Below, in pieces: positions 6,191 through 33,147 of a DNA stretch of 41,491 bases. The stretch is from an uncultured Mycoplasma sp. GTDB taxonomy: Bacteria > Bacillota_I > Bacilli_A > RF39 > UBA660. The stretch is taken from the NCBI GenBank assembly GCA_964538205.1, contig CAZIFN010000002.1:1-41491 (forward strand), given 5' to 3'. How positions within the stretch are numbered: the first letter of the stretch is position 1; every line of letters begins with the position of its first letter. Under the pieces are notes generated by a model that worked only from the letters and a program-made list of their open reading frames with translations, was not told the DNA's origin and made no database searches. A program made the translations under genes and the position numbers.

Positions 6191-6228
6191 AACAATCTCA
6201 AATATGGAAGATAAAATTAGGAGAACAT

Positions 6229-6711: not shown

Positions 6712-6794
6712 TTAAAAGTACCTAAATACTTATTTACATTCATAAAATAAAAAAACTTCTCGTTTAATATAATATAAATGAGAGGAGAAACTTT

Positions 6795-7750: not shown

Positions 7751-7802
7751 AAAAAACTAGATAAAAGATATAAAATACAACATATCTATTTAATCTAGTT
7801 TT
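7751..7802. terminator. Bidirectional terminator shared by convergent collagen-like genes
   Basis: AAAACTAGAT (7753-7762) pairs with ATCTAGTTTT (7793-7802). An inner AGATAT/ATATCT helix is present, and the hairpin is flanked by an A-run and a T-run. Confidence 0.6.
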
Positions 7803-8779
7803 ATAATGCTCATTTTAGCAGTTACACTACCATCAAAAATTAAGTCTGTAGTTTGTTCAGAAGTAATAACTAATGTTAGTTCATCATCTTCTATTAGTCC
7901 AGTTATCACTGTACCATAAGCGTTACATATAACATTTGCTTTTCCCTCACATTTAATTTCGCTACCTAAAATTTTTGCATCGGTATTTTTAACACTCAAA
8001 ACAAAATCAGTATCAACAGATGGAGCAACATTTATGAAATAATTAATTTGATATATACCAATTTTCCTAATGCCTATCGCAAAATTAGTATCATATCTAA
8101 CAAAAATGGCCGGACCAGCTTTTTCTAAAGGAATTATTGTTTCGGTATCAGCCATAACATTAAACGTTTGTGTCGACTCTGAATATCGTTCTCCATATGC
8201 ACCTACGCCACTAGGATCGCCTTTAGGTCCCTGCTCTCCTTTAGGTCCAATATCACCTTTTTCTCCAGTGTCACCTTTAGGACCAACAGGACCAGGATCA
8301 CCTTTTTCTCCTTTTTCACCTTGGATTCCAGGAATACCTTGTTCTCCTTTAGGTCCAATATCACCTTTTTCACCAGCATCACCTTTAGGACCAACAGGAC
8401 CAGTATCTCCCTTTTCTCCTTTTTCACCTTGTATTCCAGGAATGCCTTGTTCTCCTTTAGGTCCAACATCGCCCTTTTCGCCAACATCACCTTTAGGACC
8501 AGTAGGACCAGCAATATGTCCTGCATTTTCATAATCCATAATATCTTCATTCCAATAGTATAAATCTCCATTTATCAGATAAGTATCGCCCATAGTACCT
8601 ACTGGATGTTCATTTTTTAATTCATCTAAAGAAATAAAAGAACCTTTAATACTGATTCCAGTTCCAGGAGCACCTCTAGGACCTGTAGGTCCTATAATAT
8701 TACAAATTCCAAGCTCCTTTAACTTTCTTCTCAAAACAATATTCTCTTTTAAATAATTAAAATCGTCACATTCTTTCAT
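7790..8779 (-). CDS. Collagen-like triple-helix repeat protein (BclA/tail-fibre-like)
   Basis: [12 protein letters not shown], then a globular insert ([14 protein letters not shown]), then about 100 residues of uninterrupted G-X-Y, then a beta-rich C-terminal domain. RBS is GGAGG. Confidence 0.8.
8213..8509 (-). repeat. In-frame tandem repeat, about 2.7 copies of a 108-bp (36-aa, 12 G-X-Y) unit
   Basis: GPKGD[V/A/T]GEKGD[V/I][20 protein letters not shown][T/P]GPV recurs head-to-tail. The antisense and alternate-frame ORFs in the track (8070-8534, 8203-8571, 8321-8563) are by-products of this repeat. Confidence 0.85.
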
Positions 8780-10948: not shown

Positions 10949-12682
10949 ATGAAATTTATTCATTTATTATATGTGCCAACAATGGCATGTAATATGGGCT
11001 GCAAATACTGTTACTTAGAAGATAACACAGTAGATGAAAAAACAAAATATGGTGCATTAGATACCTTAAAGTATGCAATAGATAAATTCAAATTAGCAGA
11101 AGTAATTCCTTTCAATATTTCTCTTCACGGAGGAGAAGTAACTACTTTAGATAAAAATACTTTTCATGATATTATAAAATATATAGACAACTATTATAAA
11201 GAAAATAAGGAAATAATTACCAAAGCAGGATTTAAATTAGGTAGTCCACATATTAAAACAAATTTATATAACTTAGAAAAACATATTGATACGATAAAAG
11301 AATATAATGTTTCCATATCTGGAAGCCTAGATCTTCCTTTATCACTTCACAATAAATATAGAGTTACAAAAAACAATCAAAAAACTTTAGACAAAATATT
11401 AAAAAATATTGAGCTTTTACGTAATATACCAAATAAGAAAAAAGTATCAGCCACTATTTTTAAAGAACATTATAACTACCTTGATGAAATTATAGATGAT
11501 ATAAAATTTTTACATAATAATACATGTTTAGATATGAATGATTTTAACTTTATGATTGGATTTGACTATAATTCAAATGGCATTCTACATCACTTAACTG
11601 AAGAAGAACAAGTTGAGTTTTATAAACGTATGCATGAAGAATTTGACAATACAGATTTAGATTATGGTGTTTCAGGTCCTTGGTTTGATGAGTTTGGCCC
11701 AGAATACTGTACAAATTGTGATAACTGTGGCGAAAAATTCTTTCTACTAGAACGAAACGGTGATATATATTCTTGTGTACGAGGACAAAAAAATAAAGAT
11801 TACTATTATGGTAACATTTATACAGACAGTGTAGAACAAATATTACAAACCGCAAAAGATAAAATATATTCTAATCATAACAAATTAAACTTTAATGAAG
11901 AATGTAGTACCTGTGGATATTTATACTTATGCAAAACCGGTTGTCCTTTTGTAAAAAATAATTATATGACAAATAAAAGTTATACATGTAAACTCCAACA
12001 AAAAATGTATGAAGACCGAAACTTAAAAAAAGATGAATATAATGAAGAAACTGTATATAAATACGTTTTAAAAATGAGGTCTCAAGACGTTATTAAGTAT
12101 ATACCAAAAACAAAAACAACAGAATATCCATCATTAGAAGAGATTATAAAAAATGATGAAAATTTAAAATATATATATGATAATGAATCTTTCATATTAG
12201 AAATAGATAACATAAAATACTCTATTTCATCACAAATAATAAAAAAGACTAGAGATATAATATATATAACACCAGAAAGTAAAGTAAAAATATATATGAA
12301 AAAAGATCTTATTAAAGAACTATGTGATTATCCAGAAAATAATTCATTATATATAATTTTATTATCCGGAAATTTAGTAAAATATGGAGATGAAGAAAGA
12401 ACAAAACAAAGACATTTAGCAACCATTCAAATATATAAGGGAATATTAGACAGTGTAAACGAAAGTCAACAAAATTACTATTCATACGATATAACAAACT
12501 TATTTAATGAATACAAAGCTGGCTTCTCAAGTGACATGCCTAATAATATTTTCTTTACAACATCATCATTAAGAGATTATCATTACTTAAAACAAAAAGA
12601 AAATGCTTATTATCATATACAGGCTATAAATTTACCATTTCAAAATATAGAATTTTATTATATAGATAAGGAGTTAAAATAA
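10949..12682 (+). CDS. Radical SAM/SPASM-domain enzyme with an uncharacterised C-terminal extension of about 200 aa
   Basis: N-terminal CNMGCKYC (CX3CX2C), a GGE motif (LHGGEVT), and SPASM-type auxiliary cluster cysteines CTNCDNCG...DIYSC and CSTCGYLYLCKTGC (CX2CX5CX3C). At 577 aa it is much longer than typical maturases. Confidence 0.8.
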   Translation: MKFIHLLYVPTMACNMGCKYCYLEDNTVDEKTKYGALDTLKYAIDKFKLAEVIPFNISLHGGEVTTLDKNTFHDIIKYIDNYYKENKEIITKAGFKLGSPHIKTNLYNLEKHIDTIKEYNVSISGSLDLPLSLHNKYRVTKNNQKTLDKILKNIELLRNIPNKKKVSATIFKEHYNYLDEIIDDIKFLHNNTCLDMNDFNFMIGFDYNSNGILHHLTEEEQVEFYKRMHEEFDNTDLDYGVSGPWFDEFGPEYCTNCDNCGEKFFLLERNGDIYSCVRGQKNKDYYYGNIYTDSVEQILQTAKDKIYSNHNKLNFNEECSTCGYLYLCKTGCPFVKNNYMTNKSYTCKLQQKMYEDRNLKKDEYNEETVYKYVLKMRSQDVIKYIPKTKTTEYPSLEEIIKNDENLKYIYDNESFILEIDNIKYSISSQIIKKTRDIIYITPESKVKIYMKKDLIKELCDYPENNSLYIILLSGNLVKYGDEERTKQRHLATIQIYKGILDSVNESQQNYYSYDITNLFNEYKAGFSSDMPNNIFFTTSSLRDYHYLKQKENAYYHIQAINLPFQNIEFYYIDKELK

Positions 12683-13041
12683 TGAATAAAGAACCCGAAA
12701 CATATGAAGAATTAATTAGACAAAAAAAATGTGTAGACATAACAAAGTATTATGATATAACTGCAGAAGAACTAGAAGAAATATACAACTTTCTAACAAA
12801 AAATGTTAATGGAGAAGTACTAGCTGGATTAGATAATATAAGGCTAAACGTAGGAAATACTACTATAGCAATAATAAATGCAACTCTTAAACTAGTAGCA
12901 GGAATAGATGGTTTAAAAATAACCAATAGTTCTTTTAAGATAATTCCTCACTACTCACCATCATCAGGATCTAGTTCATATGGAGGATCATCATCAAACA
13001 ATAACAATAATAACAATAACAATAACAATAATAATAGATAG
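12682..13041 (+). CDS. Small protein with a low-complexity Ser/Gly/Tyr tail ending in 13 consecutive Asn; candidate rSAM substrate
   Basis: Its start overlaps the rSAM stop (TAATG), implying translational coupling. The C-terminus reads HYSPSSGSSSYGGSSS-N13-R. No Cys-rich core and no TM helix. Confidence 0.6.
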   Translation: MNKEPETYEELIRQKKCVDITKYYDITAEELEEIYNFLTKNVNGEVLAGLDNIRLNVGNTTIAIINATLKLVAGIDGLKITNSSFKIIPHYSPSSGSSSYGGSSSNNNNNNNNNNNNNR

Positions 13042-13052
13042 GAGTAAAAAAT

Positions 13053-14066
13053 ATGCCATTAATATCTGATAATTACCATATAAAAAAATTAAATAAATAT
13101 GGAATAAATATAAAAACAAAATATATAGTTGATAATAAAATATTAGAACGTAATACTAATAATTCTAATAATGATGATATTCTAAATGGTATTAGATGTG
13201 AAAAAGGCTATTATTTAAAAGATAAACTATTACATACAGAGAAAATATTTGACTCTAGAATAGAATATACATTTATATCAAAAGAACAAGAAGCAACAGA
13301 ATATACTTGTCCAAATTGTGGTATGCATTCAAAACTAAAAGACTTTATAGATTGTTGTCCTTATTGTCATACGTATTATAATATTGATTATACAAATAAA
13401 AATTTAGCAACCAAGTATCATTATGATAGAGTATTAGCAAATACAGGTTATAGAATAATAACAGCCATAATAGACTTCATAATTAGTTTAATATTAAGCT
13501 ATATATTTATAAAAATAACATCAAGAACATTTAATAATTATGATATTTCAAAAATATTTATATATGGACTAATATTATCACTTGTACTGTATTACATATT
13601 CTATATTGCAGATGCCTATATTATCTTAACACCAATAAAAATATATAAAGATAAACAAAATGAAAAACAAAAATCTTTCTGGGAAAGAACAAAAATAGAT
13701 AAGAAAAAGTTTTTTAATAACTTAAATTATGAAATAGGAAAAAAATATTATAATATAGATAATATAATTGATTATGATATTATAGATTATATAGAATTTA
13801 AGGATTATACTAAAGACAATAAACTATATGTAGAAGTAAATGCAGAAGTAAGAATTGTCTATTATGAAAATAATAAAATACATTCTAAAAATATTAAAGA
13901 TAAATATATAATGAGAAAAGAAAATGATGATATTTTAGAATTAAAAGATAAAGCAAATTTAATAAAATGTCATAACTGTGGTGCTTCAATTGATGCTAAT
14001 AAAGGAGAATGTACATATTGTCATACTAAGACAAAATATCTTCAAGCCTGGGTATTAACTAACTAA
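13053..14066 (+). CDS. Membrane protein with two zinc-ribbons flanking two TM helices
   Basis: CPNCG...CCPYCH (N-terminal) and CHNCG...CTYCH (C-terminal). Hydrophobic segments IITAIIDFIISLILSYIFI and IFIYGLILSLVLYYIFYI. RBS is GGAG. Confidence 0.65.
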   Translation: MPLISDNYHIKKLNKYGINIKTKYIVDNKILERNTNNSNNDDILNGIRCEKGYYLKDKLLHTEKIFDSRIEYTFISKEQEATEYTCPNCGMHSKLKDFIDCCPYCHTYYNIDYTNKNLATKYHYDRVLANTGYRIITAIIDFIISLILSYIFIKITSRTFNNYDISKIFIYGLILSLVLYYIFYIADAYIILTPIKIYKDKQNEKQKSFWERTKIDKKKFFNNLNYEIGKKYYNIDNIIDYDIIDYIEFKDYTKDNKLYVEVNAEVRIVYYENNKIHSKNIKDKYIMRKENDDILELKDKANLIKCHNCGASIDANKGECTYCHTKTKYLQAWVLTN

Positions 14067-20830: not shown

Positions 20831-20851
20831 ATGCAAGAAAGGAGTAATGAT

Positions 20852-22609
20852 ATGAAAAAAGAAAATAACTTTAAGATTTTATGGAAATATTTAAAAGAAG
20901 ATAAACTTAAACTAATAATTTATATTATTTTAGTATTATGTACTTACTTACCTGCACTATTTAATGCCTACTTCTGGGGAAAAGCACTTGAATTTCTTAT
21001 TATAAAAGACATACATAATTTCTTTAAATATTTAGTAATATGGGAAGGGATATATATAATTGCATATTCATTTATACAAGTAATCACAAACAAATTATAT
21101 AATTATCTAGAAATAAAATTTATTCAAAATGTTAGTATGGACTTATATAGAAAAATAGACTCATTACCAGCAAGAGCTTTTGAAGAGATAGGCGTTGGTG
21201 AATTTATAAATAGATTATATAATGATCCAGATAGAATAATGGAATTGCTTAATAAATTAATTAAACTAATTTGTAAAAGCTTAGTTGTAATTGTAATTCT
21301 AATACTAGCTTTTTCTATCTCATTTATAATAGGTATAGAAATAATAATATTTGGATTTATCATGGGTTATATATCTACAAAATATTTTCCAAGAATTAAA
21401 AAAACACAAGAAAAAATCAAAAAAGAATCAGATGTTTATGTCAAAACAGCAACTGAAAATATAACTGGAATAAGAGAAATTAAAGCCCTAGGTATAAAAA
21501 ATAATATAGAAACAAATCTTAAAGAACAACTTTCAGAACTATTTAATCATACTAAAAAGATAAGAAACTATGAAGTATGGTATCACTGCCTAAATAACCT
21601 ATCATATTATATATTACAATTTATTATTTTATATACAGCAGGATATTATTTTGTTATAGGTAAAATAACATATGCATTATTTATTATGATAGAAATGTAT
21701 ATTTGGAGAGTAGATGAAGTAGTAGAAAGTATATCAGAGTTTGGTGTTAGTTATAATAAAGTAACAGTATCTTTAAAAAGAATTGGTGAAATTATAAATA
21801 ATAAATTATATCAAGATGAAAGTTATGGTAAAAAAGAATTAACAAATAATAAAGGTATAGTAGAATTTAGGAATGTAAAATTTAAATATTCTGATGAAGA
21901 AGAATATACTTTAAATGGACTTAGTTTAAAATTAATGCCAAATAAAAAGAATGCAATAGTAGGTAAATCTGGAAATGGCAAATCAACAATATTTAATTTA
22001 TTATTAAGATATTTTGATGCAACAGAAGGAGAAGTATTAATAGATGGAATAAATATAAAAGACTTAACAGAAGAATCATTAAGAAAGAATATATCTGTTA
22101 TTAGACAATCGCCATTTTTATTTAATTTATCAATTATTGATAACTTTAAATTAGTAAAAAAAGATGTAACCATAGAAGAAATAAGAAAATATTGTAAAAA
22201 AGCTTATATTGATGAGTATATTATGTCACTGCCAAAACAATATGAGACAATAATAGGAGAAGGTGGAATAAATTTATCAGGAGGTCAAAAACAACGTTTA
22301 GCAATTGCGAGAACACTATTATTAGATACTAAAATAATATTATTTGATGAAGCAACATCAGCTTTAGATAATGAATCTCAAGAGTACATAAAAAAGACAA
22401 TAGATGAGTTAGTAAAAAATCATACTGTAATTATTGTAGCACACAGATTATCAACAATTGTAGATGCTGATGTTATAAATATAATAGATAAAGGAAAGTT
22501 AGAATCCATTGGTACACACAAAGAACTATTAAAAAAATCAAAAATATACAAAAGTTTATATTCAAATGAAAATTCAAATTCACACAATAATACTAATCCC
22601 TCTTTTTAA
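20852..22609 (+). CDS. ABC transporter, fused permease/ATP-binding (type I exporter, MsbA/LmrA-like)
   Basis: Six-TM N-terminal half; Walker A GKSGNGKST, signature LSGGQKQRLAIAR, Walker B ILFDEATSALD. I prefer ATG 20852 (RBS AAAGGAG) over 20831. No C39 peptidase domain. Confidence 0.85.
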   Translation: MKKENNFKILWKYLKEDKLKLIIYIILVLCTYLPALFNAYFWGKALEFLIIKDIHNFFKYLVIWEGIYIIAYSFIQVITNKLYNYLEIKFIQNVSMDLYRKIDSLPARAFEEIGVGEFINRLYNDPDRIMELLNKLIKLICKSLVVIVILILAFSISFIIGIEIIIFGFIMGYISTKYFPRIKKTQEKIKKESDVYVKTATENITGIREIKALGIKNNIETNLKEQLSELFNHTKKIRNYEVWYHCLNNLSYYILQFIILYTAGYYFVIGKITYALFIMIEMYIWRVDEVVESISEFGVSYNKVTVSLKRIGEIINNKLYQDESYGKKELTNNKGIVEFRNVKFKYSDEEEYTLNGLSLKLMPNKKNAIVGKSGNGKSTIFNLLLRYFDATEGEVLIDGINIKDLTEESLRKNISVIRQSPFLFNLSIIDNFKLVKKDVTIEEIRKYCKKAYIDEYIMSLPKQYETIIGEGGINLSGGQKQRLAIARTLLLDTKIILFDEATSALDNESQEYIKKTIDELVKNHTVIIVAHRLSTIVDADVINIIDKGKLESIGTHKELLKKSKIYKSLYSNENSNSHNNTNPSF

Positions 22610-23255: not shown

Positions 23256-23774
23256 ATGAAAGATGGAATTATAAAATTTGTAAGTATCGTTTTAGCAATC
23301 ATAAGTGTTATAATACTTATCGTATTTCTTCAAAATATAATATATAATGGAAAACCATTTACTATATTAGATTATAGACTTTTAATAGTAGATAAAGATA
23401 ATAAAGATTTAAATATAAGTAAAGATGATTTAATAATAGTAAATGAAAAAGATATTAATAATATAAAGGAAAATATGATAATTTCTTACACTCTTAATGA
23501 AAAAGATATATACTTTGGTACAGTAAATAATGTAAATGATGATGATTCAATAGAAATAGCTTTTTCTTCTGAAAAGACACATATAATTAATAAAGCCTCA
23601 GTAATAGGAACATATCAGTTTATGATTAAACATTTAGGTAAATATATTTTATATTTAAGAACATTTAAAGGTTTTATATTATCAATAGGTATAGTATTTG
23701 TAATCTTATTAATAATTACAAGTATTAGTAAAATAACACTATTTACTAAAAAAATATTTACAAAAAAATACTAA
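23256..23774 (+). CDS. Bitopic membrane protein, possibly a catalytically inactive SipW-type (S26B) signal-peptidase homolog
   Basis: N- and C-terminal TM helices bracket a beta-rich domain of about 110 aa, the SipW/archaeal-type layout. Where SGSMxP...GD is expected it reads LLIVDKDNKDLNISKDDLIIV, so no Ser-Met-Pro. RBS is GAGGG. Confidence 0.5.
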   Translation: MKDGIIKFVSIVLAIISVIILIVFLQNIIYNGKPFTILDYRLLIVDKDNKDLNISKDDLIIVNEKDINNIKENMIISYTLNEKDIYFGTVNNVNDDDSIEIAFSSEKTHIINKASVIGTYQFMIKHLGKYILYLRTFKGFILSIGIVFVILLIITSISKITLFTKKIFTKKY

Positions 23775-23816
23775 AAAAAGCGGTTTTCTTAATAAAAAGA
23801 AACACTGCTTTTTTTA
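23773..23816. terminator. Bidirectional terminator between convergent genes
   Basis: A7-GCGGTTTTCTT, loop, AAGAAACACTGC-T7: an imperfect stem with an A-run on one side and a T-run on the other. Confidence 0.55.
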
Positions 23817-24347
23817 TAGTTTTACAATATTTAAAAAGGCATTAGTACCATCAGCAGGTGAAATAGTAACAGTAGATGTTGATTCAATACTTAAACTTAT
23901 ATTATCACCAGCTGCAAATGAATTAATAGAACTTCCAATAAAATCCACATCTTGATTAGCAGTTACGTCTTTAATAATTGTAGTACTACCGATTGGTGTA
24001 GTATTTTGACTTATTTCAACTGTTATATTAGCATTAGTATTAGAAGAGCCAGAAAAGAAATAATCAACTTTATAGTTTCCAGCTTCAACTATTGTTAGAG
24101 CATTTTGAACTCCTGTTGTTACATTTGATGTAGGACCAGTACTGCCTAAAGGTATAGTTTGAGCAACATTTTGATCTAAATTAATAGTATTAGTAGCATT
24201 ATCATATTTGCGACCGAAAGCACTAGTAGCAGAAACACCGCTCGGTCCAGTTGGCCCTGTCGGACCTATTGGCCCAGTAGGGCCAGCGACGTAGCAAACT
24301 TTCTTTGCCTTAAAATCATTACAGTTATTTATACAGTCATCAGACAT
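23814..24347 (-). CDS. Short collagen-like protein with a BclA-like (C1q/TNF-like) C-terminal domain
   Basis: VCYVAGPTGPIGPTGPTGPSG is followed by a beta-rich domain of about 140 aa (AGNYKVDYFFSGSS...). RBS is AAGGAG. Confidence 0.75.
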   Translation of the reverse strand: MSDDCINNCNDFKAKKVCYVAGPTGPIGPTGPTGPSGVSATSAFGRKYDNATNTINLDQNVAQTIPLGSTGPTSNVTTGVQNALTIVEAGNYKVDYFFSGSSNTNANITVEISQNTTPIGSTTIIKDVTANQDVDFIGSSINSFAAGDNISLSIESTSTVTISPADGTNAFLNIVKL

Positions 24348-24527
24348 AAATATACTCCTTTCTATAATAATTTATGATTATAATAACTAAATGCTCATTA
24401 TCTTATTACTAGAAAGAAAAGCTCTAAACTAAAAATTTTAAAATCGATATCACAATTCTTACAACTAATATCTACATTTAATAATTAAAAAATAAAGAAG
24501 AAAACATGCAAGTTCTAAGTTCTTTTA

Positions 24528-25145
24528 TTATAAGTCTTTTTCAAAAATATATTGAGCATGTGCAGTTTTTACATTTTGTTCAAAAAATTTGATATAGCTT
24601 TCTTTTACTTCATCAATTTCAAAAAAAATGAATCCATAAGTGTCAGACTGCCAAGAAAATCCTTCTTTTAAATTAAATTTATTTGCTTTTTTTACATCGT
24701 CAATATTTATAAAGTCAAAGACTTGTATCATTAACGAAGGTTTATATCCAAGTTTTATATATAGAGGACATGCTCTAAAACGTGCACCTAAATCAATATG
24801 TTTAATTTCTTTATACTTACATCTTTTTTCAAATTCGTTAATTAGTGATTTTGCGTAGCCTTTATTTCTATAATTGAGATCAACTGCAATTGTTCCAAGC
24901 GTAATTTTCTTTTTGTTTGTATCCATTCCTTTTCCAGTGATTGCGGCGATAATCTTTTTGTCTTTTGTAATATACATTAATAATTCATTATCAATTTCTA
25001 ATTGCTTATTCATTTCCATAAAACGTTCACCCATCGTAAAATAGTGTTCGTTGTTTATTTTTGCATCCTCATAAAAAGTCATTGAAAGAAAATCAAATAC
25101 CTTTTTTAGTTCTTTTTTATTTTTTACAGTTTTAATATTAATCAT
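24528..25145 (-). CDS. GNAT family N-acetyltransferase (last gene of the RiPP-like operon)
   Basis: Motif A NYRNKGYAKSLINEFEKR. Co-oriented with the PqqD-like gene and 42 nt downstream of it. Confidence 0.75.
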   Translation of the reverse strand: MINIKTVKNKKELKKVFDFLSMTFYEDAKINNEHYFTMGERFMEMNKQLEIDNELLMYITKDKKIIAAITGKGMDTNKKKITLGTIAVDLNYRNKGYAKSLINEFEKRCKYKEIKHIDLGARFRACPLYIKLGYKPSLMIQVFDFINIDDVKKANKFNLKEGFSWQSDTYGFIFFEIDEVKESYIKFFEQNVKTAHAQYIFEKDL

Positions 25146-25187
25146 ATTATATTACTCCTATTATTACAATTATTTAACAGAAACATT

Positions 25188-25475
25188 TCAAAAAAATTCA
25201 TTTTCTTCATAGCCTAAATTAATCCATTGACTTTCATGAAAGTTATTGTTTGAATTAGGAATATTATCAATTAATTGCAAATTTTTTAAATCATCTAATA
25301 TATCATTTTCTAATTCAATTCCTAATGGATGATTGGGATTATATCCAGTTTTTAATTTTTCAAATAGTTCATAAGAACTAAGTGGCAATTCATAATTTTG
25401 AATAGTTGAACAATCACAAATCAGTAAGTAATTCTCTTCTTTTCTGTATTTAACATATTTTTTTAAGTAAATCAT
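25188..25475 (-). CDS. PqqD-like / RiPP recognition element (RRE) candidate
   Basis: 95 aa. Its start overlaps the stop of the rSAM/SPASM gene (TAATG). Size, position and the pattern YLLICDCSTIQNYELPLSSYELFEKLKTG...DILDDLKNLQLI fit stand-alone PqqD-family peptide chaperones. No HMM search was run. Confidence 0.5.
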   Translation of the reverse strand: MIYLKKYVKYRKEENYLLICDCSTIQNYELPLSSYELFEKLKTGYNPNHPLGIELENDILDDLKNLQLIDNIPNSNNNFHESQWINLGYEENEFF

Positions 25476-26617
25476 TAAGCACTCTCCCTAATTCCATATT
25501 CTTCTCTGTTGTTTTTTTGTTTTGCTTCTTCTAATTTTCTTTTAAGTTCTTCTAGTTTATATAACCCTAAATTTTTACCATTTTCAATACAATAAGGTGT
25601 TGGCATCAATGGATCGTCAAACCATTGAATGCTTTGTGGAGGACACCTATCACATTTATTTTTAACTTTACATCCATCGCATCCACGAGTTTGATACGAT
25701 CTAAATATGTTAAAAGGCTTACCGTCCCATATTTCTTTTAATGCTTTTTTAGTAATGTTATCCCACTTTATTTCTTTTTTCGGTGGATTTACTCTAGCTA
25801 AAGGGCAAGGTGTTGTAATTCCATCTGAATTTATTTCACAAAACCATTTTGCAGCCGGACATTCATAATAAATCATAGAAGATGCTGTTTCTTTTTTTAA
25901 ATTTGGCATATCTATAAAATTAACCATAATATTATTATTTGCACATTCTTTTTGAAGATCAAACCAATATTTATTTGGAAGTTCAGATTCAGATACAAAT
26001 ATTTCACTATTTTCCTTTGCTCTACCAGAAATAGATATTGTAGACAAAGACCAGTTACAAGGCTTTAAAGTAATCACTAGATTTTTTAATTTATCTATTT
26101 TATGAATGTTTTTCGGATGGATACAGGTTGCAATAGAAGTTCTAATGTTCGCACTGGTAAATGCCTTAATACTACTTACTGCTTTATCAAATAATACTTT
26201 TTCGGATTTTCCCTGAACATTTTTTCTTAAATAACCATGTGTAATCCAATCTGCACCATCTAGACTTATTTGTATTCCTAAAATATAATTTTTTGCCTTT
26301 AATATTGCTTTTAATATTTTATCACTAAACACTCCATTAGTTGTTAGCATAAAATAAATTTCATTTTTTATTAATGCATCTATTATTTTTATGAAGTCCG
26401 GATGAGTTGTCGGCTCTCCACCGGAAATATTAACAAAAAACACGCCGTTTTTTGCTAAATCTTCAATAATTTTTAACCATTCATCTCCTGTCAATTCTTT
26501 TTCTGGAATATTATTTCCATAACTGCCATAACAGTGTTTACAGCGCATATTACATTTTGAAGTTAAAATTAAATAGCAGTTATGTGGTATTTTCAGACAT
26601 TGATTATTATTTTTCAT
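25475..26617 (-). CDS. Radical SAM/SPASM-domain peptide-modifying enzyme (PqqE/MftC-like architecture)
   Basis: CNMRCKHC near the N-terminus, SGGEPT, and C-terminal auxiliary-cluster cysteines (YYECPAAKWFCEINSDG...PCP; CDGCKVKNKCDRC). RBS is AAGGAAAG. Confidence 0.8.
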   Translation of the reverse strand: MKNNNQCLKIPHNCYLILTSKCNMRCKHCYGSYGNNIPEKELTGDEWLKIIEDLAKNGVFFVNISGGEPTTHPDFIKIIDALIKNEIYFMLTTNGVFSDKILKAILKAKNYILGIQISLDGADWITHGYLRKNVQGKSEKVLFDKAVSSIKAFTSANIRTSIATCIHPKNIHKIDKLKNLVITLKPCNWSLSTISISGRAKENSEIFVSESELPNKYWFDLQKECANNNIMVNFIDMPNLKKETASSMIYYECPAAKWFCEINSDGITTPCPLARVNPPKKEIKWDNITKKALKEIWDGKPFNIFRSYQTRGCDGCKVKNKCDRCPPQSIQWFDDPLMPTPYCIENGKNLGLYKLEELKRKLEEAKQKNNREEYGIRESA

Positions 26618-26872
26618 AGTTACCTACTTTCCTTTTTTACTATTTTTATTACATTATTTGATAAAATATATATTTTTTATCTGATAAATTGGAATATCCA
26701 AGCCAACCAAGATGTTCTCTTGTGCTAAAAAAATATTGTCACTTACAAATCTATTTTTCTTTTTCTATGTCCTTTCGAGAACTCTTCAATAGATAAGGAA
26801 CATTGCTGTTAATAATGTTAGGCTTTTTCCGCTTTGATTATTTATATCAATATAGATTTTATATTAATTTAA

Positions 26873-27856
26873 TTATTTCTTTCTTGCAAGATAGTATTGA
26901 AAAATACTATTATACTTCTTACTGTATCCTATTTGTTCAATTAATTCTAAATTTAAATCCTTAAATTTTTCCTTTTTAATTAATATTGGAGTGTGACCAA
27001 TACAAATTATGCATCCATTTTTTTTAACTTTTTTAACTAGTAAATCAAAAAGTTTATTCGCATCATGAGTATTTACAACTCCACCATTAAGAAACCTTAA
27101 TATTAATAAATCTACACTATTGTTTTTGATTGGAGAATCAAATGCATTACAACATTTTGATTCATCTACGTTCTTTTTAGAATAATTAACCATATCTTCG
27201 CTCATATCATGTCCTACTGTTGTGCATGTTGGAATTACATCTTTTATCACTTTTAAAAATTCTCCAGTTGAACATGCAGGATCATAAACTATTTTAGGAT
27301 TTAATTTATATTTTTTTATTATTTCAATTGTATAGTCTCTAATATGTTTTTCTCCTGTAGATAAATATGAAGCTATTTCATCATTTACATTCCAGTTTAA
27401 GTTATTAGATGTTTGTTCTAAATTTGTGTCAAAATATTTAAAACGAAATGGATAAAATATATCACATAACTTTCGGTTCTTTACTATATTATTAAACATT
27501 TTACGTTTTTCTTGATTAGTAAAGGGATAATATTCAAGAGAAATTTTTCTATATTTATAATTACAATTTTTTAAAATTCCTAATAACATATTCTGCGTGA
27601 TATTACTACAATTGATTGACTTCAGTTGATTGTTTAAATATAATTGTGAAATAGTTTTTCTACCTAATATTACTGTGTTGTTATAAGTAATATAGAAGAT
27701 AGTTTGGGGCATATTGAAATCATATTCAACAAATTCTGTACATTTTCTATCATAAATTTGAATTTTATCATCAACATTAATATCTTCTAATGATTGTTTA
27801 TATAATTCGATTTCTCGATTTATAATTTGCTCTTGCATTAACAATTTATTTTTCAT
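26873..27856 (-). CDS. Class I SAM-dependent methyltransferase with an uncharacterised N-terminal domain of about 180 aa
   Basis: Motif I VYDPACSTGEF, an acidic loop VGHDMSEDM and motif IV-like DLLILRF. Confidence 0.7.
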   Translation of the reverse strand: MKNKLLMQEQIINREIELYKQSLEDINVDDKIQIYDRKCTEFVEYDFNMPQTIFYITYNNTVILGRKTISQLYLNNQLKSINCSNITQNMLLGILKNCNYKYRKISLEYYPFTNQEKRKMFNNIVKNRKLCDIFYPFRFKYFDTNLEQTSNNLNWNVNDEIASYLSTGEKHIRDYTIEIIKKYKLNPKIVYDPACSTGEFLKVIKDVIPTCTTVGHDMSEDMVNYSKKNVDESKCCNAFDSPIKNNSVDLLILRFLNGGVVNTHDANKLFDLLVKKVKKNGCIICIGHTPILIKKEKFKDLNLELIEQIGYSKKYNSIFQYYLARKK

Positions 27857-27871
27857 TGTTTCCCTTTCAAA

Positions 27872-27916
27872 AATTTAAAAAGAAGCAACATTATTAAAAA
27901 TATAATATTGCTTTCC
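27872..27916 (-). terminator. Hairpin plus T-run directly after the precursor ORF (probable leaky terminator)
   Basis: On the minus strand AAGCAATATTAT pairs with ATAATGTTGCTT (one mismatch), followed by CTTTTTAAATTT. The hairpin starts 5 nt after the TAA stop. Confidence 0.55.
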
Positions 27917-27920
27917 TTTA

Positions 27921-28034
27921 TTAGTATTGATTTTGGCAGCAAACAGACATTGCTAATATTTTCATTACTTTAGTATTCTTTTTAGTATTAACTTTTACCG
28001 CAACTGTTGCTAATCCGGCAGTTCCTGTTCCCAT
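27921..28034 (-). CDS. Candidate RiPP precursor peptide, 37 aa: MGTGTAGLATVAVKVNTKKNTKVMKILAMSVCCQNQY
   Basis: Hand-translated; too short for the ORF track. Strong RBS GAGGAGGG lies 4 nt before the ATG. It sits between rSAM/SPASM and methyltransferase genes on the same strand and is followed by its own hairpin. Confidence 0.6.
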   Translation of the reverse strand: MGTGTAGLATVAVKVNTKKNTKVMKILAMSVCCQNQY

Positions 28035-28091
28035 AATACCCTCCTCTCTAATTATATATATAAACCTATTTTAAAATAAACAGATTTATAT

Positions 28092-29369
28092 CTAACGTTT
28101 TAGAATATGCTTTTTTATACAATTATTCAAGTTATATTTATATGTTTCACATTCTGGCTTGTTTTGTTTAATTGAAATAAATGGACATCCTCCCATGCAA
28201 ATTGGAAGTATCTCACATTGACAACATTCATCATATTCAAACGGATTCCATGTGTAAAATCTGTTATTTAATACACCTGTAATTTCATTGTCAAAAGGAT
28301 AGTCATATACCGTAGCTATTCTTCTTTCTGGTCTGCCAATATCGTTTTCGCATTTAAATAAGTTTAAATTTGGGTCAATTACGAAAGTACCAACTTTAGC
28401 AGCTCTACAATAAATTGGCTTTTGTCTTGGAAAAGGGGATGCCATATCTTTGTCTTGACTCATATTATTATCAAACTCGTCTAATAGAGAAGCATATTCT
28501 TTTTTATTAAAATAACTATCGTTTTCATTTTTACATGAATCGGTATATTCTCTAACTAAACCTAAGTACATCTCTAATTTAAGCTCATTTGTAACATATT
28601 TTCTCAATTCTTCAATATGTGTATAATTTTTTTTATCTACATTCATTCTGATAACTGGATTAATACCATGTTTTTTTGCTATTAATGAGTTTGCTACAAT
28701 CTGATCAAAAGTTGCCAATCCCCCTATTAGACACCTTCTTTGGTTATGAATGTGTTCAGGACCATCCAATGTAATAAATAATTGATTAATTTTTAAATCT
28801 GGAAGTTGCTTTATAATGTTCTCTGACAATAAGTAACCATTTGTGGTTAAGAACGCATTATAATCAACATTTAAGCTATTACACACTTCAATTATTTCTT
28901 GACTCATTTTTTGTATTATACTAAATACTAATAGCGGCTCTCCGCCAAACCATATTAAGTTTAATTTCGTATATCCAAGTGAAAGTTGTTTTTTAATGAA
29001 CTTTATAATTTCTATTTGTTCATCTTCATTTATAATTTTACCATATCTATCTTCATAACAATATGGACATTTAAAGTTACAACGCAAAGTTGGTGCAATG
29101 GTAATTGTTAATAAGTCTTTTTCCTGTTGTTCTTTGATATATCTGTCTTTTAAAAATTTTAGTTCATCAAAGTCGTCATTAATTATCATGCCTTTTTTGA
29201 ATAATTCATGATATGCTTTAATATTGAAGTCATCAGGCAAAACGTTGGTTGAAGATTTTAAATTTTCATAAGTTTGTTTAGAAATTTCTGCAAATGATGA
29301 ATTTAAAATATTAATTAAATAAAATTTCTTGCCATATTTTTTAAATATATTATATTTTGATAGTTTCAT
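28092..29369 (-). CDS. Radical SAM/SPASM peptide maturase with an N-terminal RRE-like domain (sacti/ranthipeptide-synthase-like architecture)
   Basis: About 90 aa precede CNFKCPYC. Then GGEPLL and the SPASM motif CCQCEILPICMGGC (CX2CX5CX3C). I prefer start ATG 29369 (MKLSKYN), because the track start 29384 lies inside the RBS GAGGAG. Confidence 0.8.
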   Translation of the reverse strand: MKLSKYNIFKKYGKKFYLINILNSSFAEISKQTYENLKSSTNVLPDDFNIKAYHELFKKGMIINDDFDELKFLKDRYIKEQQEKDLLTITIAPTLRCNFKCPYCYEDRYGKIINEDEQIEIIKFIKKQLSLGYTKLNLIWFGGEPLLVFSIIQKMSQEIIEVCNSLNVDYNAFLTTNGYLLSENIIKQLPDLKINQLFITLDGPEHIHNQRRCLIGGLATFDQIVANSLIAKKHGINPVIRMNVDKKNYTHIEELRKYVTNELKLEMYLGLVREYTDSCKNENDSYFNKKEYASLLDEFDNNMSQDKDMASPFPRQKPIYCRAAKVGTFVIDPNLNLFKCENDIGRPERRIATVYDYPFDNEITGVLNNRFYTWNPFEYDECCQCEILPICMGGCPFISIKQNKPECETYKYNLNNCIKKHILKR

Positions 29370-29390
29370 GTAAATTCTCCTCATTCTGAA

Positions 29391-30521
29391 TTATTTTGTA
29401 GTTTTTCTTAATACTTTTGGTGCAGTATTATTATCTGATTGCTTTGATGATTCTTCATATATTGATGGGATATGACCGAAAACTAATGCTTTTTTTCTAA
29501 TCATTGTTGTAACTTCTTGCCTATTGTGGAATAAACTTTTAATTGCTAATACATCATAATTTTGACTTAAGATTTGAATGGATTCTTTGATATCTTCTTC
29601 AACTTTGTTTGGTAATTTTAAAGTTACAATGGCTATGCCATTATCCTTTAATGATTTTACAAGCTTATTCATAATATTTGATGTAGCTTGCGGCTCAATG
29701 TTCATATCATTTACAATTATATCAAAGAAATTTTCAAAATCCAAATCCTCAATTCTACATTTATAATGATGAATCTTCGGATTGGATTCAAGTTCTGGTT
29801 TTAGATTACCGGGATCAACTGCCACAACTTCGTATCCATAATCTGCTAATACTTTTGTCCATCCGCCTGGAGAGGCACCAATATCCAATGCATAGCCGGT
29901 TCCGTCCAAAGTAACATTAAACTTTGATAAAGCTTCTTTTAATTTATTTTCAGCTCTTGAAATAGAACGCCCTCCTTTACCACAAATTCTGTATTCGTCA
30001 CAGTGAAAATTTAAATTTTCTTTACTAGAAGAGAATCCTAAATAATAGTCATTATGATGAATCATAATTGATAATACTTTGATGTCATCATTTTTTAAAC
30101 TGGTATCTGAAAATGTTGGTATATTTCCCCTTTGCTCATAGTGAGATCCAACGAACACTTCTAAATCCTTTGATGAATAATCTAATCCATTTTTACCGCC
30201 ACTGATAATTCTACATTGTACTGCAAATGATTCTTTTGTTAATGTTGATATACTATTAATACCTGATAAAATTTCTTGTTCGTCCAACTCTAAATTCTCA
30301 GTGATTTTACCATTTTTCATTACTGGCATTATATGTTTAATAAAAATGGGTGATTTCTCTAATAATTTGTTTATAAATTCTTCTTTTTCTAATTTAGAAT
30401 CAATCATTAAAACACTGTCTGAAAAGACACTTTCAACTTCTAATTCTTCATCAACTGCTATCAATTCACTTAGCATGCTTTTTCTAAAACATGGTGTATA
30501 AGTAATAATAAATTTGCTCAA
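29391..30521 (-). CDS. RlmM-like SAM-dependent methyltransferase (THUMP-like N-domain plus FtsJ-like 2'-O-MTase domain)
   Basis: SISRAENKLKEAL...YALDIGASPGGWT...VVAVDPGNL...IVNDMNIEP...VTLKLP aligns block-by-block with my recollection of E. coli RlmM (SRSTLKLEEAF, VDLGACPGGWT, SVDNGPM, CDMVEKP, NLKLP). RBS is GAGGAGG. Confidence 0.65.
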   Translation of the reverse strand: MSKFIITYTPCFRKSMLSELIAVDEELEVESVFSDSVLMIDSKLEKEEFINKLLEKSPIFIKHIMPVMKNGKITENLELDEQEILSGINSISTLTKESFAVQCRIISGGKNGLDYSSKDLEVFVGSHYEQRGNIPTFSDTSLKNDDIKVLSIMIHHNDYYLGFSSSKENLNFHCDEYRICGKGGRSISRAENKLKEALSKFNVTLDGTGYALDIGASPGGWTKVLADYGYEVVAVDPGNLKPELESNPKIHHYKCRIEDLDFENFFDIIVNDMNIEPQATSNIMNKLVKSLKDNGIAIVTLKLPNKVEEDIKESIQILSQNYDVLAIKSLFHNRQEVTTMIRKKALVFGHIPSIYEESSKQSDNNTAPKVLRKTTK

Positions 30522-30556
30522 AATATAACCTCCTCATAAATAAGTTAATACAAAAA

Positions 30557-30590
30557 TGAGTAGTCACCAAAAAGGTACTATGACTACTCA
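30557..30590. promoter_or_regulatory. Perfect 10-bp inverted repeat in the 5' region of the RiPP-like operon (candidate operator or 5'UTR hairpin)
   Basis: TGAGTAGTCA (30557-30566), 14-nt spacer, TGACTACTCA (30581-30590), 36 nt upstream of the first start codon of the operon. Confidence 0.4.
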
Positions 30591-30990
30591 ATAATATCAC
30601 AATTTATATCAAAGAAAGTATCAAGGCCATAATACAATCCCACATTCCATTGATAAATATTATAAAGGCATTTTTATAAAAGTCAACAAAAAATTAGTAA
30701 TAAAAGCTTTGATAAAAGATTAACTTTTAATGTTATAATATAAATATATATGAGGTGATTTGGTGTGTTAGTAATTTTTGAAAGATTAGATAATTTTGGA
30801 ATAACTGTACTGGGCAAATGATAAAAGATTATTTAACTAGAAATATACTGAAATATCAAAAAATGAAACAAATATTTGTAAATAAATAAAAAAATGATGT
30901 CATAAGGACCTTTAGATTCTGCTTTGAAAGCATATTTGTTTGCAACAGATAGATACATAAGAATAAAATAAAAGGAGTCTATAGAAAAGA

Positions 30991-31572
30991 ATGAAAGAAA
31001 ATCTTAATAGTTTATTAGAAAGTTTAAAAAAGTGTGAAATTTGTAAAGAGAATTTTGGATTCCAACCTCATCCTATATTTTTAGGAAATGTTAATTCTAA
31101 AATAGTTCAGATTAGTCAGGCACCATCCGCAACAGTCCATGAAACGCTAAAACCTTTTACAGACAAATCAGGAAGCAAATTAAAATATGAATGGTATATG
31201 ATTGATGATGATGTATTTTATAACCCAGATAATTTTTATATCGCAGCTCTGGCACATTGTTATCCTGGAAAAGATAAAAACGGTAATGATAGAATGCCAC
31301 CAAAGATTTGTTTTGAAACTTGGATAAAAAAAGAATTAGAATATATAAATAATAAGATTTATATAATACTTGGTTCAAAAGCTGCAAAAGTGTTTTTTCC
31401 AGATGAAAATTTTAATGAATTAATTTTCAAAAATAATTATATTAATGGTAAATTAGCTATTGTATTACCGCATCCATCTCCAATTAATATAAAATGGTTT
31501 AAAGATCATCCTGAATTTATGGAAAAAAGAATATTTGAAATAAGAAAAATAATAAATGAAGTATTAACATAA
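30991..31572 (+). CDS. Uracil-DNA glycosylase superfamily protein
   Basis: Motif A-like VQISQAPS and motif B HPSPINIKW. Size is typical (193 aa). RBS is AAGGAG. Confidence 0.7.
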   Translation: MKENLNSLLESLKKCEICKENFGFQPHPIFLGNVNSKIVQISQAPSATVHETLKPFTDKSGSKLKYEWYMIDDDVFYNPDNFYIAALAHCYPGKDKNGNDRMPPKICFETWIKKELEYINNKIYIILGSKAAKVFFPDENFNELIFKNNYINGKLAIVLPHPSPINIKWFKDHPEFMEKRIFEIRKIINEVLT

Positions 31573-32116: not shown

Positions 32117-32169
32117 TAAGTTTATTTGATTAAATACATTAAAATATAATAGAAATGGAGGAATTTATA

Positions 32170-33147
32170 ATGAAAAATATAGATATAACAAAACCGGTGT
32201 TTCATATTACTGAAGATAATAAAAAAATTATAAACGAAATAGAAAAAAGACTTGATTTAATTATTATTGATGATAATGAAAAAAAAAGAAAATTGCAGAT
32301 TAAGTCTAAAGTTAGATCAATTCATTCATCATTAGCGATTGAAGCAAACTCTTTATCATTAGAATCAGTTGAGAGTATTGTTGAAAATAAAACAGTTTTA
32401 GGTAATAGAAAAGAAATTCAAGAAGTAAAAAATGCTAATGAATTGTATGAACACATAAACGAATATAATTGGAAAGATGAGAATGATTTTTTAAAAGCTC
32501 ATACATTAATGATGAAGTATTTTGATGATGATAATGGTTATTATAGAAATCATGGTGAGGGAGTAAAAAAAGGAAATGAAGTAATTTATTCAGCTCCACA
32601 ATCTATATTAGTTCCATCTCTTATGAGAAGTTTATTTGAATTTATGATTGATAATGAAAATAAAATTCATCCATTAATATTATCTTCTATATTTCATTAT
32701 TATTTTGTATATGTTCATCCATTTAGCGATGGTAATGGTAGAATGGCTAGATTTTGGGTAAGTTTGATTTTAACCAATTGGAATTCAAAATTTAAATATA
32801 TTCCTATTGAAGAAGAAATATATTTAAATCAACAAAAATATTATGATTCTATTGCACAATGCCATATTAATGGTAATGCGAATGTATTTATTGATTTTAT
32901 GTTAATGTGTATTAATTCATCATTACAAAAAACTACCCAGAAAACTACCCAGAAAATAAAATTAAATAACAATCAATTAAAAATTATAGAATTAATAAAA
33001 GAAAATCCTAAGGTTACAAGAAATGAATTAGCCAGTATTTTGAATATTACATCAGATGGTGTTAAATATAACTTAAAAAAATTATTGGATAATGATATTA
33101 TTGAAAGAATTGGACCAGATAATGGTGGTTATTGGGAAGTAAAATAA
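32170..33147 (+). CDS. Fic family protein (AMPylase-type) with a C-terminal winged-helix DNA-binding domain
   Basis: Fic motif HPFSDGNGRMARFW (HxFx[D/E]GNGRxxR). N-terminal SLAIEAN resembles the inhibitory [S/T]xxxE[G/N] helix. C-terminal wHTH LKIIELIKENPKVTRNELASILNITSDGVKYNLKKL. The start at 32170 follows GGAGG. Confidence 0.85.
   Translation: MKNIDITKPVFHITEDNKKIINEIEKRLDLIIIDDNEKKRKLQIKSKVRSIHSSLAIEANSLSLESVESIVENKTVLGNRKEIQEVKNANELYEHINEYNWKDENDFLKAHTLMMKYFDDDNGYYRNHGEGVKKGNEVIYSAPQSILVPSLMRSLFEFMIDNENKIHPLILSSIFHYYFVYVHPFSDGNGRMARFWVSLILTNWNSKFKYIPIEEEIYLNQQKYYDSIAQCHINGNANVFIDFMLMCINSSLQKTTQKTTQKIKLNNNQLKIIELIKENPKVTRNELASILNITSDGVKYNLKKLLDNDIIERIGPDNGGYWEVK

Follow-up and report, generated by a model that had tools for sequence, protein, structure and literature searches.

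The seven-gene operon on the minus strand at positions 24528-30590 of a 41,491-nucleotide stretch of DNA from an uncultured Mycoplasma sp. (contig CAZIFN010000002.1; this whole stretch, with about 26% G+C, is called the window) is best explained as a biosynthetic unit that makes an undescribed family of ribosomal peptides modified by radical S-adenosylmethionine (SAM) enzymes, a reading that we consider likely. The operon had been singled out as a pathway for a peptide synthesized ribosomally and modified post-translationally (RiPP) that fits no named class, and this view is upheld in that neither of its two radical SAM enzymes, rSAM1 and rSAM2, reaches an equivalog cutoff of NCBIfam. Because, in addition, the literature on the core motif of the peptide and on this combination of genes gave nothing relevant, the family is regarded as undescribed. 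All seven minus-strand open reading frames (ORFs), the gaps between them, the TAATG overlap, the Cys motifs and the hairpin behind the short ORF are present where the original prediction had placed them, and its ORF coordinates are kept here. In the order of transcription, the operon consists of the following features.

29391-30521, minus strand: predicted RlmM-like RNA ribose 2'-O-methyltransferase, 376 amino acids (aa), starting at TTG, with GAGGAGG as ribosome-binding site (RBS)
28092-29369, minus strand: rSAM1, radical SAM/SPASM protein, 425 aa, with an N-terminal extension of about 90 aa
27921-28034, minus strand: precursor peptide gene of 37 codons, product MGTGTAGLATVAVKVNTKKNTKVMKILAMSVCCQNQY, with leader motif TGTAGLA and core CCQNQY
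~27877-27913, minus strand: hairpin and T-run after the precursor gene, with a 12-bp stem and a folding energy (dG) of -15 kcal/mol
26873-27856, minus strand: candidate isonocardicin-synthase-like 3-amino-3-carboxypropyl transferase, 327 aa, named from homology in the PDB
26618-26872, minus strand: Amidohydro_2 pseudogene remnant (parent of ~526 aa), of which ~34 N-terminal and ~35 C-terminal codons are left
25475-26617, minus strand: rSAM2, radical SAM/SPASM protein, 380 aa, with no fused leader-binding domain
25188-25475, minus strand: 95-aa partner of rSAM2 with a predicted RiPP recognition element (RRE; PqqD-like) fold, joined to rSAM2 by the TAATG overlap
24528-25145, minus strand: GNAT acetyltransferase, 205 aa, the last gene of the operon (Pfam Acetyltransf_1, E 6.7e-10)

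The precursor gene, which follows rSAM1 after a 57-nt gap and has GGAGG 6 nt upstream, had been proposed to encode a peptide with only two adjacent Cys and a C-terminal Tyr, and the core CCQNQY bears this out. Comparison with 14 distinct homologues, which stand beside an orthologous rSAM gene and share the invariant C-terminus, identifies the 37-codon ORF as a genuine gene and as a real precursor. On the contigs of seven close rSAM1 clusters an ORF of 36-43 codons with a GGAGG-type RBS lies directly after rSAM1 in each case, usually with a hairpin next, and extra precursors came from a scan of metagenomes with a back-translated pattern and from a phmmer search of 1.84 billion representative proteins. 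The 14 distinct precursors obtained in total lie immediately behind rSAM1 in every case for which the surrounding DNA was retrieved, and all of them combine TGT(A/V)G(L/I)A as an N-terminal motif with a linker that varies and is mostly rich in Lys and with a C-terminal CCQNQ(Y/F) that runs into the stop codon. The last residue is Tyr in 13 of the 14 and Phe in a single one (CCQNQF in L007; L-numbers are labels of related loci on other contigs). Since the third positions of codons vary over the invariant residues, the precursor is under purifying selection. The hairpin after the precursor gene has equivalents in L002, L004, L005, L007, L011 and L216 and is weak or absent in L009; it is likely to terminate transcription in part and so to set how much precursor there is relative to enzyme.

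The order of the genes, including the short ORF, recurs on independent metagenome contigs and contigs of metagenome-assembled genomes (MAGs) at 41-71% protein identity, which is far beyond chance, so that the neighbourhoods of the homologous rSAM genes carry the conserved short ORF expected of a precursor. The cluster is kept in about a dozen uncultured low-GC bacteria, its sources including one Hadza gut metagenome and two NCBI MAGs. The family is nevertheless rare: a phmmer search of the whole protein library gave no more than six representative clusters of the peptide at E 0.001 or better, and the 95-aa partner has only 12. The back-translated core scan of metagenomes gave four true precursors among 120 matches (the rest being mostly chance). 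A scan of genome contigs with the rSAM1 alignment bears on Clo7bot-type loci and not on which named species carry the family: the 80 loci listed are all Clo7bot-type at no more than 37% identity, and none of them has a CCQNQ[YF] peptide. Comparison of gene content across loci by tblastn separates a core set (rSAM1, precursor, rSAM2 and the 95-aa partner), a near-core set (the FtsJ-type methyltransferase and the GNAT) and an optional set (the 327-aa protein and the Amidohydro_2 protein of ~526 aa). The genes that flank the cluster differ in every related genome; therefore, the block behaves as a mobile accessory unit. It is not a known defence system, because PADLOC gave only generic radical SAM and methyltransferase similarities, and no tRNA or rRNA gene was found within the window.

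Both radical SAM enzymes carry the CX3CX2C motif and pass the cutoffs for SPASM domains, and the Cys residues of their auxiliary clusters are invariant in the family alignments. For rSAM1, the longest ORF starts at 29384, but the homologues begin with MKxSKYN and GAGGAG lies 7 nt before 29369, so the start at 29369 and the 21-nt gap to the preceding gene are correct. Its scores are 58.7 for PF04055 and 46.4 bits for TIGR04085 (cutoff 27). The best models of rSAM1 are all peptide maturases that align end to end (FlmE/OhkG and geopeptide models also match), which speaks against its membership in a non-peptide family; its scores, set against the equivalog cutoffs, are 317.9 of 600 for Clo7bot (TIGR04334), 226.4 of 600 for CefB (NF038107) and 225.7 of 525 for TIGR04463. 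Among solved structures, the family profile matches the thioether synthase CteB best (E 1e-21) and then anSME, ChlB and SkfB. About 20 protein clusters at 41-90% identity form the rSAM1 subfamily, and the Clo7bot-type maturases follow at no more than 37%. An RRE in the N-terminus of rSAM1 is plausible. An argument for it by likeness to the 95-aa family was dropped, as the comparison of residues 1-92 with that family by hhalign was not significant (probability 0.2%).

For rSAM2, PF04055 scores 84.2 and PF13186 scores 30.5 (cutoff 21.5). It has no N-terminal extension and is about equally distant from MftC, PqqE, NirJ2, AhbD, ScmE and SkfB; MftC is the top NCBIfam match (104.4 against a cutoff of 265), PqqE scores 96.8 against 381, SkfB also stays below its cutoff, and the closest relatives in the PDB are SkfB and PqqE. 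The TAATG overlap, in which the stop codon of rSAM2 meets the start codon of the 95-aa partner, points to translational coupling of the two. The partner, of which only 12 clusters were found, had been called PqqD-like, and this description stands at the level of predicted fold and fails at the level of sequence: no match was obtained in Pfam (PF05402 included) or among PDB sequences, even with a profile. Its AlphaFold2 (AF2) model, built from 13 homologues, has a predicted local distance difference test (pLDDT) score of 86.5, and the top Foldseek matches are all RRE domains (TbiB1 5v1v, CteB, SuiB, ThcOx, lasso B1) at template modelling (TM) scores of 0.5-0.6. The TbiB1 match has E 0.012, probability 1.0 and TM 0.57-0.61, and no match reaches E 0.001, so that the predicted fold of the partner is consistent with an RRE domain. 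It is this resemblance of the coupled partner to leader-binding domains that speaks for placing rSAM2 with the peptide-modifying enzymes.

A division of labour between the two enzymes is suggested by a natural variant. In candidate division WS6, a homologue of the RlmM-like methyltransferase (51% identity) belongs to a cluster of another make-up, as follows.

L213/L214, 3807-11201: WS6 variant cluster with the RlmM-like methyltransferase, an rSAM2 homologue and its partner, and no rSAM1

The rSAM2 homologue has 47% and the partner 36% identity, and the cluster also encodes two glycosyltransferases (GT1 and GT4), a PIG-L deacetylase and a carbamoyltransferase. The WS6 peptide of 43 aa, MKINPGTSGLAQNVSSRVSNILRASSSKIVRPIQMSSCAHNEY, contains the stretches MKINPGTSGLAQ...RPIQMSSCAHNEY and ends in CAHNEY; its leader motif and C-terminus are recognisably related to those of the main family through P-[VI]-x-M-x-x-C-x-x-N-x-Y. 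In the core, the second Cys is replaced by Ala and the two Gln by His and Glu. Because the variant without rSAM1 keeps Cys(-6), Asn(-3) and Tyr(-1), these residues are assigned by hypothesis to rSAM2 and its partner, and because it lacks both rSAM1 and the second Cys, Cys(-5), perhaps together with Gln(-2), is assigned in the same manner to rSAM1. The WS6 cluster suggests a wider superfamily of peptides that end in C-x-x-N-x-Y and are possibly glycosylated.

Among the optional genes, the one for the 327-aa protein had been taken for a generic class I SAM methyltransferase and counted as one of two methyltransferases. Neither description is retained. Although Pfam finds only generic methyltransferase domains in it, the protein is a full-length homologue of isonocardicin synthase (Nat; 8zhu), with E 3.1e-31 and 27% identity between residues 45-326 and residues 44-325 of the 326-aa chain, and 8zhu is its sole PDB sequence match at E <0.01; the supposed pair is thus a Nat-like candidate aminocarboxypropyl transferase and an RlmM-fold enzyme predicted to act on RNA. 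Nat-type homologues aminocarboxypropylate phenols, including a tyrosyl phenol, from SAM (PMC11869996). Given that isonocardicin synthase transfers the aminocarboxypropyl group to a phenol, and that a phenol is available here as the C-terminal Tyr, this residue is the likely acceptor, and we rate the chance that the Nat-like enzyme would modify it in this way as about even. The known enzymes, Nat and the tyrosyl aminocarboxypropyl transferase McalACT, use non-ribosomal substrates; here, in contrast, the substrate would be a ribosomal peptide and the gene is optional, being present in the window, L002, L005, L126, L159 and L216. Every cluster with the gene has a precursor that ends in Tyr, and the lone cluster with a Phe-ending precursor is without it, but this correlation is weak because 13 of the 14 precursors end in Tyr anyway. 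As a separate observation, a 737-aa protein annotated as YcaO-like on plasmid pBFI_2 of Bacillus cereus 03BB108 (L219, 5723-7936) has a C-terminal domain with 32% identity to the 327-aa protein, possibly another use of a rare transferase fold in peptide modification.

The 255 nt between the 327-aa gene and rSAM2 had been described as an ORF-free spacer; they hold instead a decayed amidohydrolase gene that is intact in relatives. The scar was detected by tblastn with the intact orthologues from L002, L004, L005 and L011, as collinear matches on the same strand at 26860-26769 and 26816-26658 (E 0.003 for the whole window). It retains residues 4-22 KIYIDINNQSGK, residues 15-34 after a frameshift KKPNIINSNVPYLLKSS and residues ~484-515 FFSTREHLGWLGYSNLSDKKYIFY, and it is marked by stop codons and an internal deletion of ~450 codons in addition to the frameshift. 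An intact amidohydrolase occupies the same slot in L002, L004, L005, L011, L100, L125 and L159, and the gene is absent from L126, L216, L007 and L009. The GNAT gene, in comparison, is found in relatives at the same position with 34-72% identity, is always the last gene, and is absent only in L009/L010; in the window it is followed by a weak hairpin and a T-run.

The first gene had been called RlmM-like and counted as the second methyltransferase. The likeness to RlmM stands as a likeness of fold. Since fold and catalytic tetrad point to an RNA 2'-O-methyltransferase, a role in tailoring the peptide is less likely than one in self-protection. RlmM is the 2'-O-methyltransferase of 23S rRNA C2498. 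The window protein has an N-terminal THUMP-like domain and an FtsJ-type domain (Pfam FtsJ E 1.4e-13) with the motif DIGASPGGWT, and its AF2 model (pLDDT 86) matches E. coli RlmM (4atn) over the full length (E 1.5e-21, TM 0.65/0.68, 381 columns), with THUMP tRNA methyltransferases next in rank. Of the K-D-K-E tetrad, three residues (K193, D272, E336) show no variation among 41 homologues, and the remaining one, K302, is kept in 90% or more. By its tetrad, SAM motif I and modelled two-domain fold the protein is a ribose 2'-O-methyltransferase of the FtsJ/THUMP type; judged from its score against the NCBIfam model for RlmM (NF008734), which is 74.7 bits against a cutoff of 176 with only the methyltransferase half aligned, it is of the RlmM fold and not an RlmM orthologue. 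The gene is the first of the operon, 10-34 nt before rSAM1, in nearly every locus and is missing only in the rearranged L007. An RNA methyltransferase that serves self-resistance inside a biosynthetic cluster has a precedent in Hom12 of the holomycin cluster (PMC3826145), and the RlmM-like gene is likewise encoded inside a biosynthetic cluster, as are other producer resistance methyltransferases. A holomycin-like dithiolopyrrolone product, considered because Cys-Cys, an acetyltransferase and an RNA methyltransferase had suggested it, was rejected, as the required oxidoreductase and decarboxylase genes are absent, and the comparison is kept only as a precedent for self-resistance. We place the possibility that the RlmM-like enzyme methylates the RNA of the producer for self-protection, rather than tailoring the peptide, a little short of even; the remaining probability is shared by two other roles, a housekeeping neighbour and the tailoring of some ribose-bearing substrate. 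More than 200 clusters make up the RlmM-like family, far more than rSAM1 has. Stand-alone homologues lie in L215 (7001-8029), L217 (8001-9143) and L218 (8001-9032); they show that the family is not restricted to these clusters and that it may be housekeeping in these lineages, and the stand-alone members could have such a role or act as orphan immunity genes. An APH-type kinase, found in L009/L010 and beside the orphan methyltransferase in L215, was rejected as a recurrent partner because the two are not orthologous (34% over 86 residues).

The region in front of this gene, which the original prediction did not describe, has a layout of its own, made up of three further features.

30659-30686, minus strand: sigma-70-type promoter, TTGACT-16 nt-TATAAT, with 11 of 12 consensus positions
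30604-30630, minus strand: short leader ORF MALILSLI*, 8 codons, with a GTGGGA upstream that resembles a Shine-Dalgarno (SD) sequence
~30551-30591, minus strand: intrinsic-terminator-like hairpin and T-run with an 11-bp stem, a putative attenuator between the leader ORF and the first gene

The promoter is the joint-best match within 23500-31200, and equivalent promoters lie upstream of the orthologous gene in L002, L004, L005 and L216. In these four loci the same order is found, namely promoter, SD and a non-conserved ORF of 8-27 codons, strong terminator and gene, with the stop codon of the leader in the 5' arm of the terminator or adjoining it; the RBS of the methyltransferase gene comes after the leader terminator. 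The arrangement of promoter, short ORF and terminator is typical of ribosome-dependent attenuators of inducible resistance genes (erm, vmlR and bmrCD types). The five loci share this layout, with the terminator overlapping or abutting the leader stop; they differ from those attenuators in that the window element heads a whole biosynthetic operon and in that neither an antiterminator helix nor a conserved stalling motif was identified in the leader. In a simple folding model, a ribosome footprint at the leader stop abolishes the terminator in four of the five loci (L002, L004, L005 and L216); in the window, the RBS region of the methyltransferase gene is paired instead with the 3' part of the leader ORF. 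No Rfam family matches the region or the whole window, which means that the leader is no known riboswitch. It is offered only as a tentative suggestion that the putative attenuator couples expression to the state of the ribosome.

What, then, would the operon make? We propose that the two RRE-type modules would bind the TGTxGLA leader and that each radical SAM enzyme would install one change in the CCQNQY hexapeptide. We rate the chance of this, with a thioether cross-link derived from Cys as the most probable change, as about even. The core, in which Q-N-Q-Y comes after just two neighbouring Cys, would allow pairs at i to i+3 spacing (C..N and C..Q), and both proposed sites would form such pairs: rSAM2 would act on Cys(-6)/Asn(-3)/Tyr(-1), and rSAM1 on Cys(-5), possibly to Gln(-2). 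The Nat-like enzyme would then move the 3-amino-3-carboxypropyl group of SAM onto the phenol of the C-terminal Tyr, and the GNAT would acetylate an amine as a tailoring, pro-drug or immunity step. The RlmM-like enzyme may 2'-O-methylate the RNA of the producer itself, probably rRNA, as self-protection. On the side of expression, the leader ORF and terminator would make the operon respond to ribosome stalling, and the hairpin after the precursor gene would keep the precursor mRNA in excess over the enzyme mRNA.

Several observations count against this scheme. The formation of thioethers is deduced from distant homology alone, the scores being about half of the family cutoffs, and the assignment of each radical SAM enzyme to its Cys rests on a single variant lineage. 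Furthermore, rSAM2 matches the non-peptide enzymes NirJ2 and AhbD as well as it matches MftC and PqqE. Transfer of a methyl group and transfer of an aminocarboxypropyl group are not readable from sequence alone, and the clusters of the compared loci share neither a conserved protease nor a conserved exporter, in agreement with the original description of the operon as having neither. As to the first gene and its leader, the L007 cluster is without the RlmM-like gene, the surroundings of some homologues of this gene (46-52% identity) hold neither a peptide gene nor an rSAM gene nor an attenuator, and in the window the modelled footprint fails by 1 nt to reach the stem of the terminator.

Considering its likeness to known systems, the cluster appears to work like a sactipeptide- or ranthipeptide-like pathway joined to a module of the PqqE/MftC type. 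On the one hand, rSAM1 shares with the maturases of the CteB, Clo7bot, CefB, TIGR04463 and PapB kinds the N-terminal extension, the CX3CX2C core and a SPASM domain with full auxiliary Cys, and the precursor gene likewise adjoins the maturase. It differs from them as a separate subfamily (at least 41% identity within, at most 37% to the next) whose scores are about half of the cutoffs, and the systems differ in that the precursors here have a single invariant hexapeptide with two adjacent Cys and no Cys-rich repeat, and in that a second, unrelated radical SAM enzyme with its own partner of predicted RRE fold is obligatory. On the other hand, rSAM2, which has no fused RRE, and its small partner of predicted RRE fold resemble the pairs of a SPASM radical SAM enzyme and a small RRE-fold protein in mycofactocin (MftA/B/C) and PQQ (PqqA/D/E), and these systems have in common with the present cluster a short precursor with a C-terminal Tyr and no dedicated exporter. 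Here the core is CCQNQY instead of GVY or E-x3-Y, rSAM2 is far below the cutoffs of MftC and PqqE, the 95-aa partner, unlike PqqD, has no sequence match to PF05402, and no homologue of MftD/E/F or PqqB/C was found in any examined locus. The operon had been considered distinct from the sacti- and ranthipeptides, PQQ and mycofactocin, and this probably stands: the cutoffs for Clo7bot, CefB, TIGR04463, MftC and PqqE are all missed.

The alternative that survives best, in our opinion an unlikely one, is that the product is an ordinary sactipeptide or ranthipeptide, a thioether bacteriocin made by rSAM1 and perhaps rSAM2, with the other genes being neighbours unrelated to the ribosome or contributing minor tailoring. 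The nearest relatives of rSAM1 are indeed maturases of Cys-rich peptides (Clo7bot, CefB, TIGR04463 and PapB, with CteB the best solved one), the core has Cys alongside Asn and Gln, residues of the Asn/Asp/Gln/Glu type are the usual acceptors in known ranthipeptides, and RlmM-like homologues are also found alone. However, the family scores stay far below cutoff (318/600, 226/600 and 226/525), the core has only two adjacent Cys and no Cys-rich repeat, the RlmM-like gene leads the operon nearly everywhere and also accompanies the WS6 variant that lacks rSAM1, and the GNAT is kept at the same position.

It could also be supposed that the cluster of the window is decaying and makes nothing or an incomplete product, as the reduction of the ancestral amidohydrolase to a 255-nt scar with a frameshift and stops might indicate. 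This is distinctly unlikely, since the other seven ORFs are intact with their RBSs, an identical copy of the cluster is present in an independent sample, and the clusters of L126 and L216 lack the amidohydrolase and are otherwise complete. From the existence of such complete natural clusters it follows that the amidohydrolase looks optional and that the pathway could remain active without it.

A peptide-derived small molecule or cofactor that stays intracellular, in the manner of mycofactocin or PQQ, would have rSAM2 and its partner modify Tyr (for example by oxidative decarboxylation and cross-linking) and the amidohydrolase release a C-terminal fragment that is then decorated, and it draws on MftC (104 bits) and PqqE (97) as matches of rSAM2 (MftC being the top one), on the small, separately encoded partner of predicted RRE fold, which is like MftB for MftC and PqqD for PqqE, on the invariant C-terminal aromatic residue, on the amidohydrolase in many clusters, on the lack of a conserved protease or transporter (an intracellular product would need neither), and on the WS6 glycosyltransferases, PIG-L deacetylase and carbamoyltransferase, which recall the glycosylation of mycofactocin. 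It is the least probable of the three and very unlikely, considering that these scores compare with cutoffs of 265 and 381, that MftD/E/F and PqqB/C homologues are missing and no associated dehydrogenases were seen, that Phe replaces Tyr in L007, and that the amidohydrolase is dispensable (absent in L126, L216, L007 and L009, a pseudogene in the window).

Within the preferred reading of a new radical SAM RiPP family, the accessory genes hint that the product targets the ribosome. The doubly cross-linked peptide would enter the peptidyl-transferase region with its modified C-terminal aromatic residue and block translation, methylation of rRNA would confer immunity, stalling on the leader would provide induction, and N-acetylation by the GNAT may keep intermediates inactive; taken as a whole, this chain of events is improbable, though not negligibly so. 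If true, it would describe a new class of ribosome-targeting RiPPs with a new resistance methylation in uncultured gut and candidate-phylum bacteria, and the RlmM-fold methyltransferase embedded under a leader-ORF attenuator points to translation as the target and to a resistance mechanism that can be tested.

New radical SAM RiPP families turn up regularly in genome mining, and for this reason the surprise of finding another one is limited. Radical SAM RiPPs have nevertheless proved to be a source of new peptide chemistry and of antibiotics (darobactin and the ruminococcins, for example), and this family offers an invariant six-residue core, two unrelated radical SAM enzymes and a natural variant that hints at their division of labour. 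A Nat-type aminocarboxypropyl transferase acting on a ribosomal peptide may be the first such use, as far as the searched literature shows. The system is compact, with seven genes in 6 kb, and could be synthesised and expressed.

Some further observations concern the surroundings of the cluster. Nearly all genes of the window lie on the plus strand, the cluster being the chief minus-strand block (24.5-30.7 kb), and both GC skew and AT skew flip sign exactly over it (window 24000-31000); together with the differing flanks, this would fit an accessory island that was inserted or inverted. Neighbouring genes encode a Fic-domain protein (32155-33147, plus strand), a family-4 uracil-DNA glycosylase (30991-31572, plus strand), whose gene and the operon promoter diverge, and an MsbA-type ABC exporter (20831-22609, plus strand), which lies 2 kb past the GNAT on the opposite strand. 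None of the three is conserved beside the cluster in other genomes, and for this reason the exporter is not assignable to it. Two paralogues of a collagen-like GPT-repeat protein (23814-24347 and 7790-8779, both minus strand; 27% mutual identity) give Scl/Lcl-like matches; one of them shares the strand of the GNAT, lies 180 nt downstream of it and is not conserved beside the cluster elsewhere. Among the related loci, L011 has a bona fide 5'-methylthioadenosine/S-adenosylhomocysteine (MTA/SAH) nucleosidase (6104-6793; 246 bits against a cutoff of 169) 111 nt upstream of the cluster, which would clear the by-products of radical SAM chemistry and of methyl and aminocarboxypropyl transfer, and L216 has an additional radical SAM protein of 255 aa after the GNAT (12693-13460). 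Finally, the window encodes a third radical SAM/SPASM protein of 577 aa (10949-12682, plus strand), with anSME (91 bits), DynA (87) and PapB (76) as its best matches, all below cutoff. Its gene directly follows that of a 666-aa protein (8936-10936, plus strand) with a zinc ribbon and BspA-type leucine-rich repeats, and the two may form a second, unrelated system of peptide or protein maturation.

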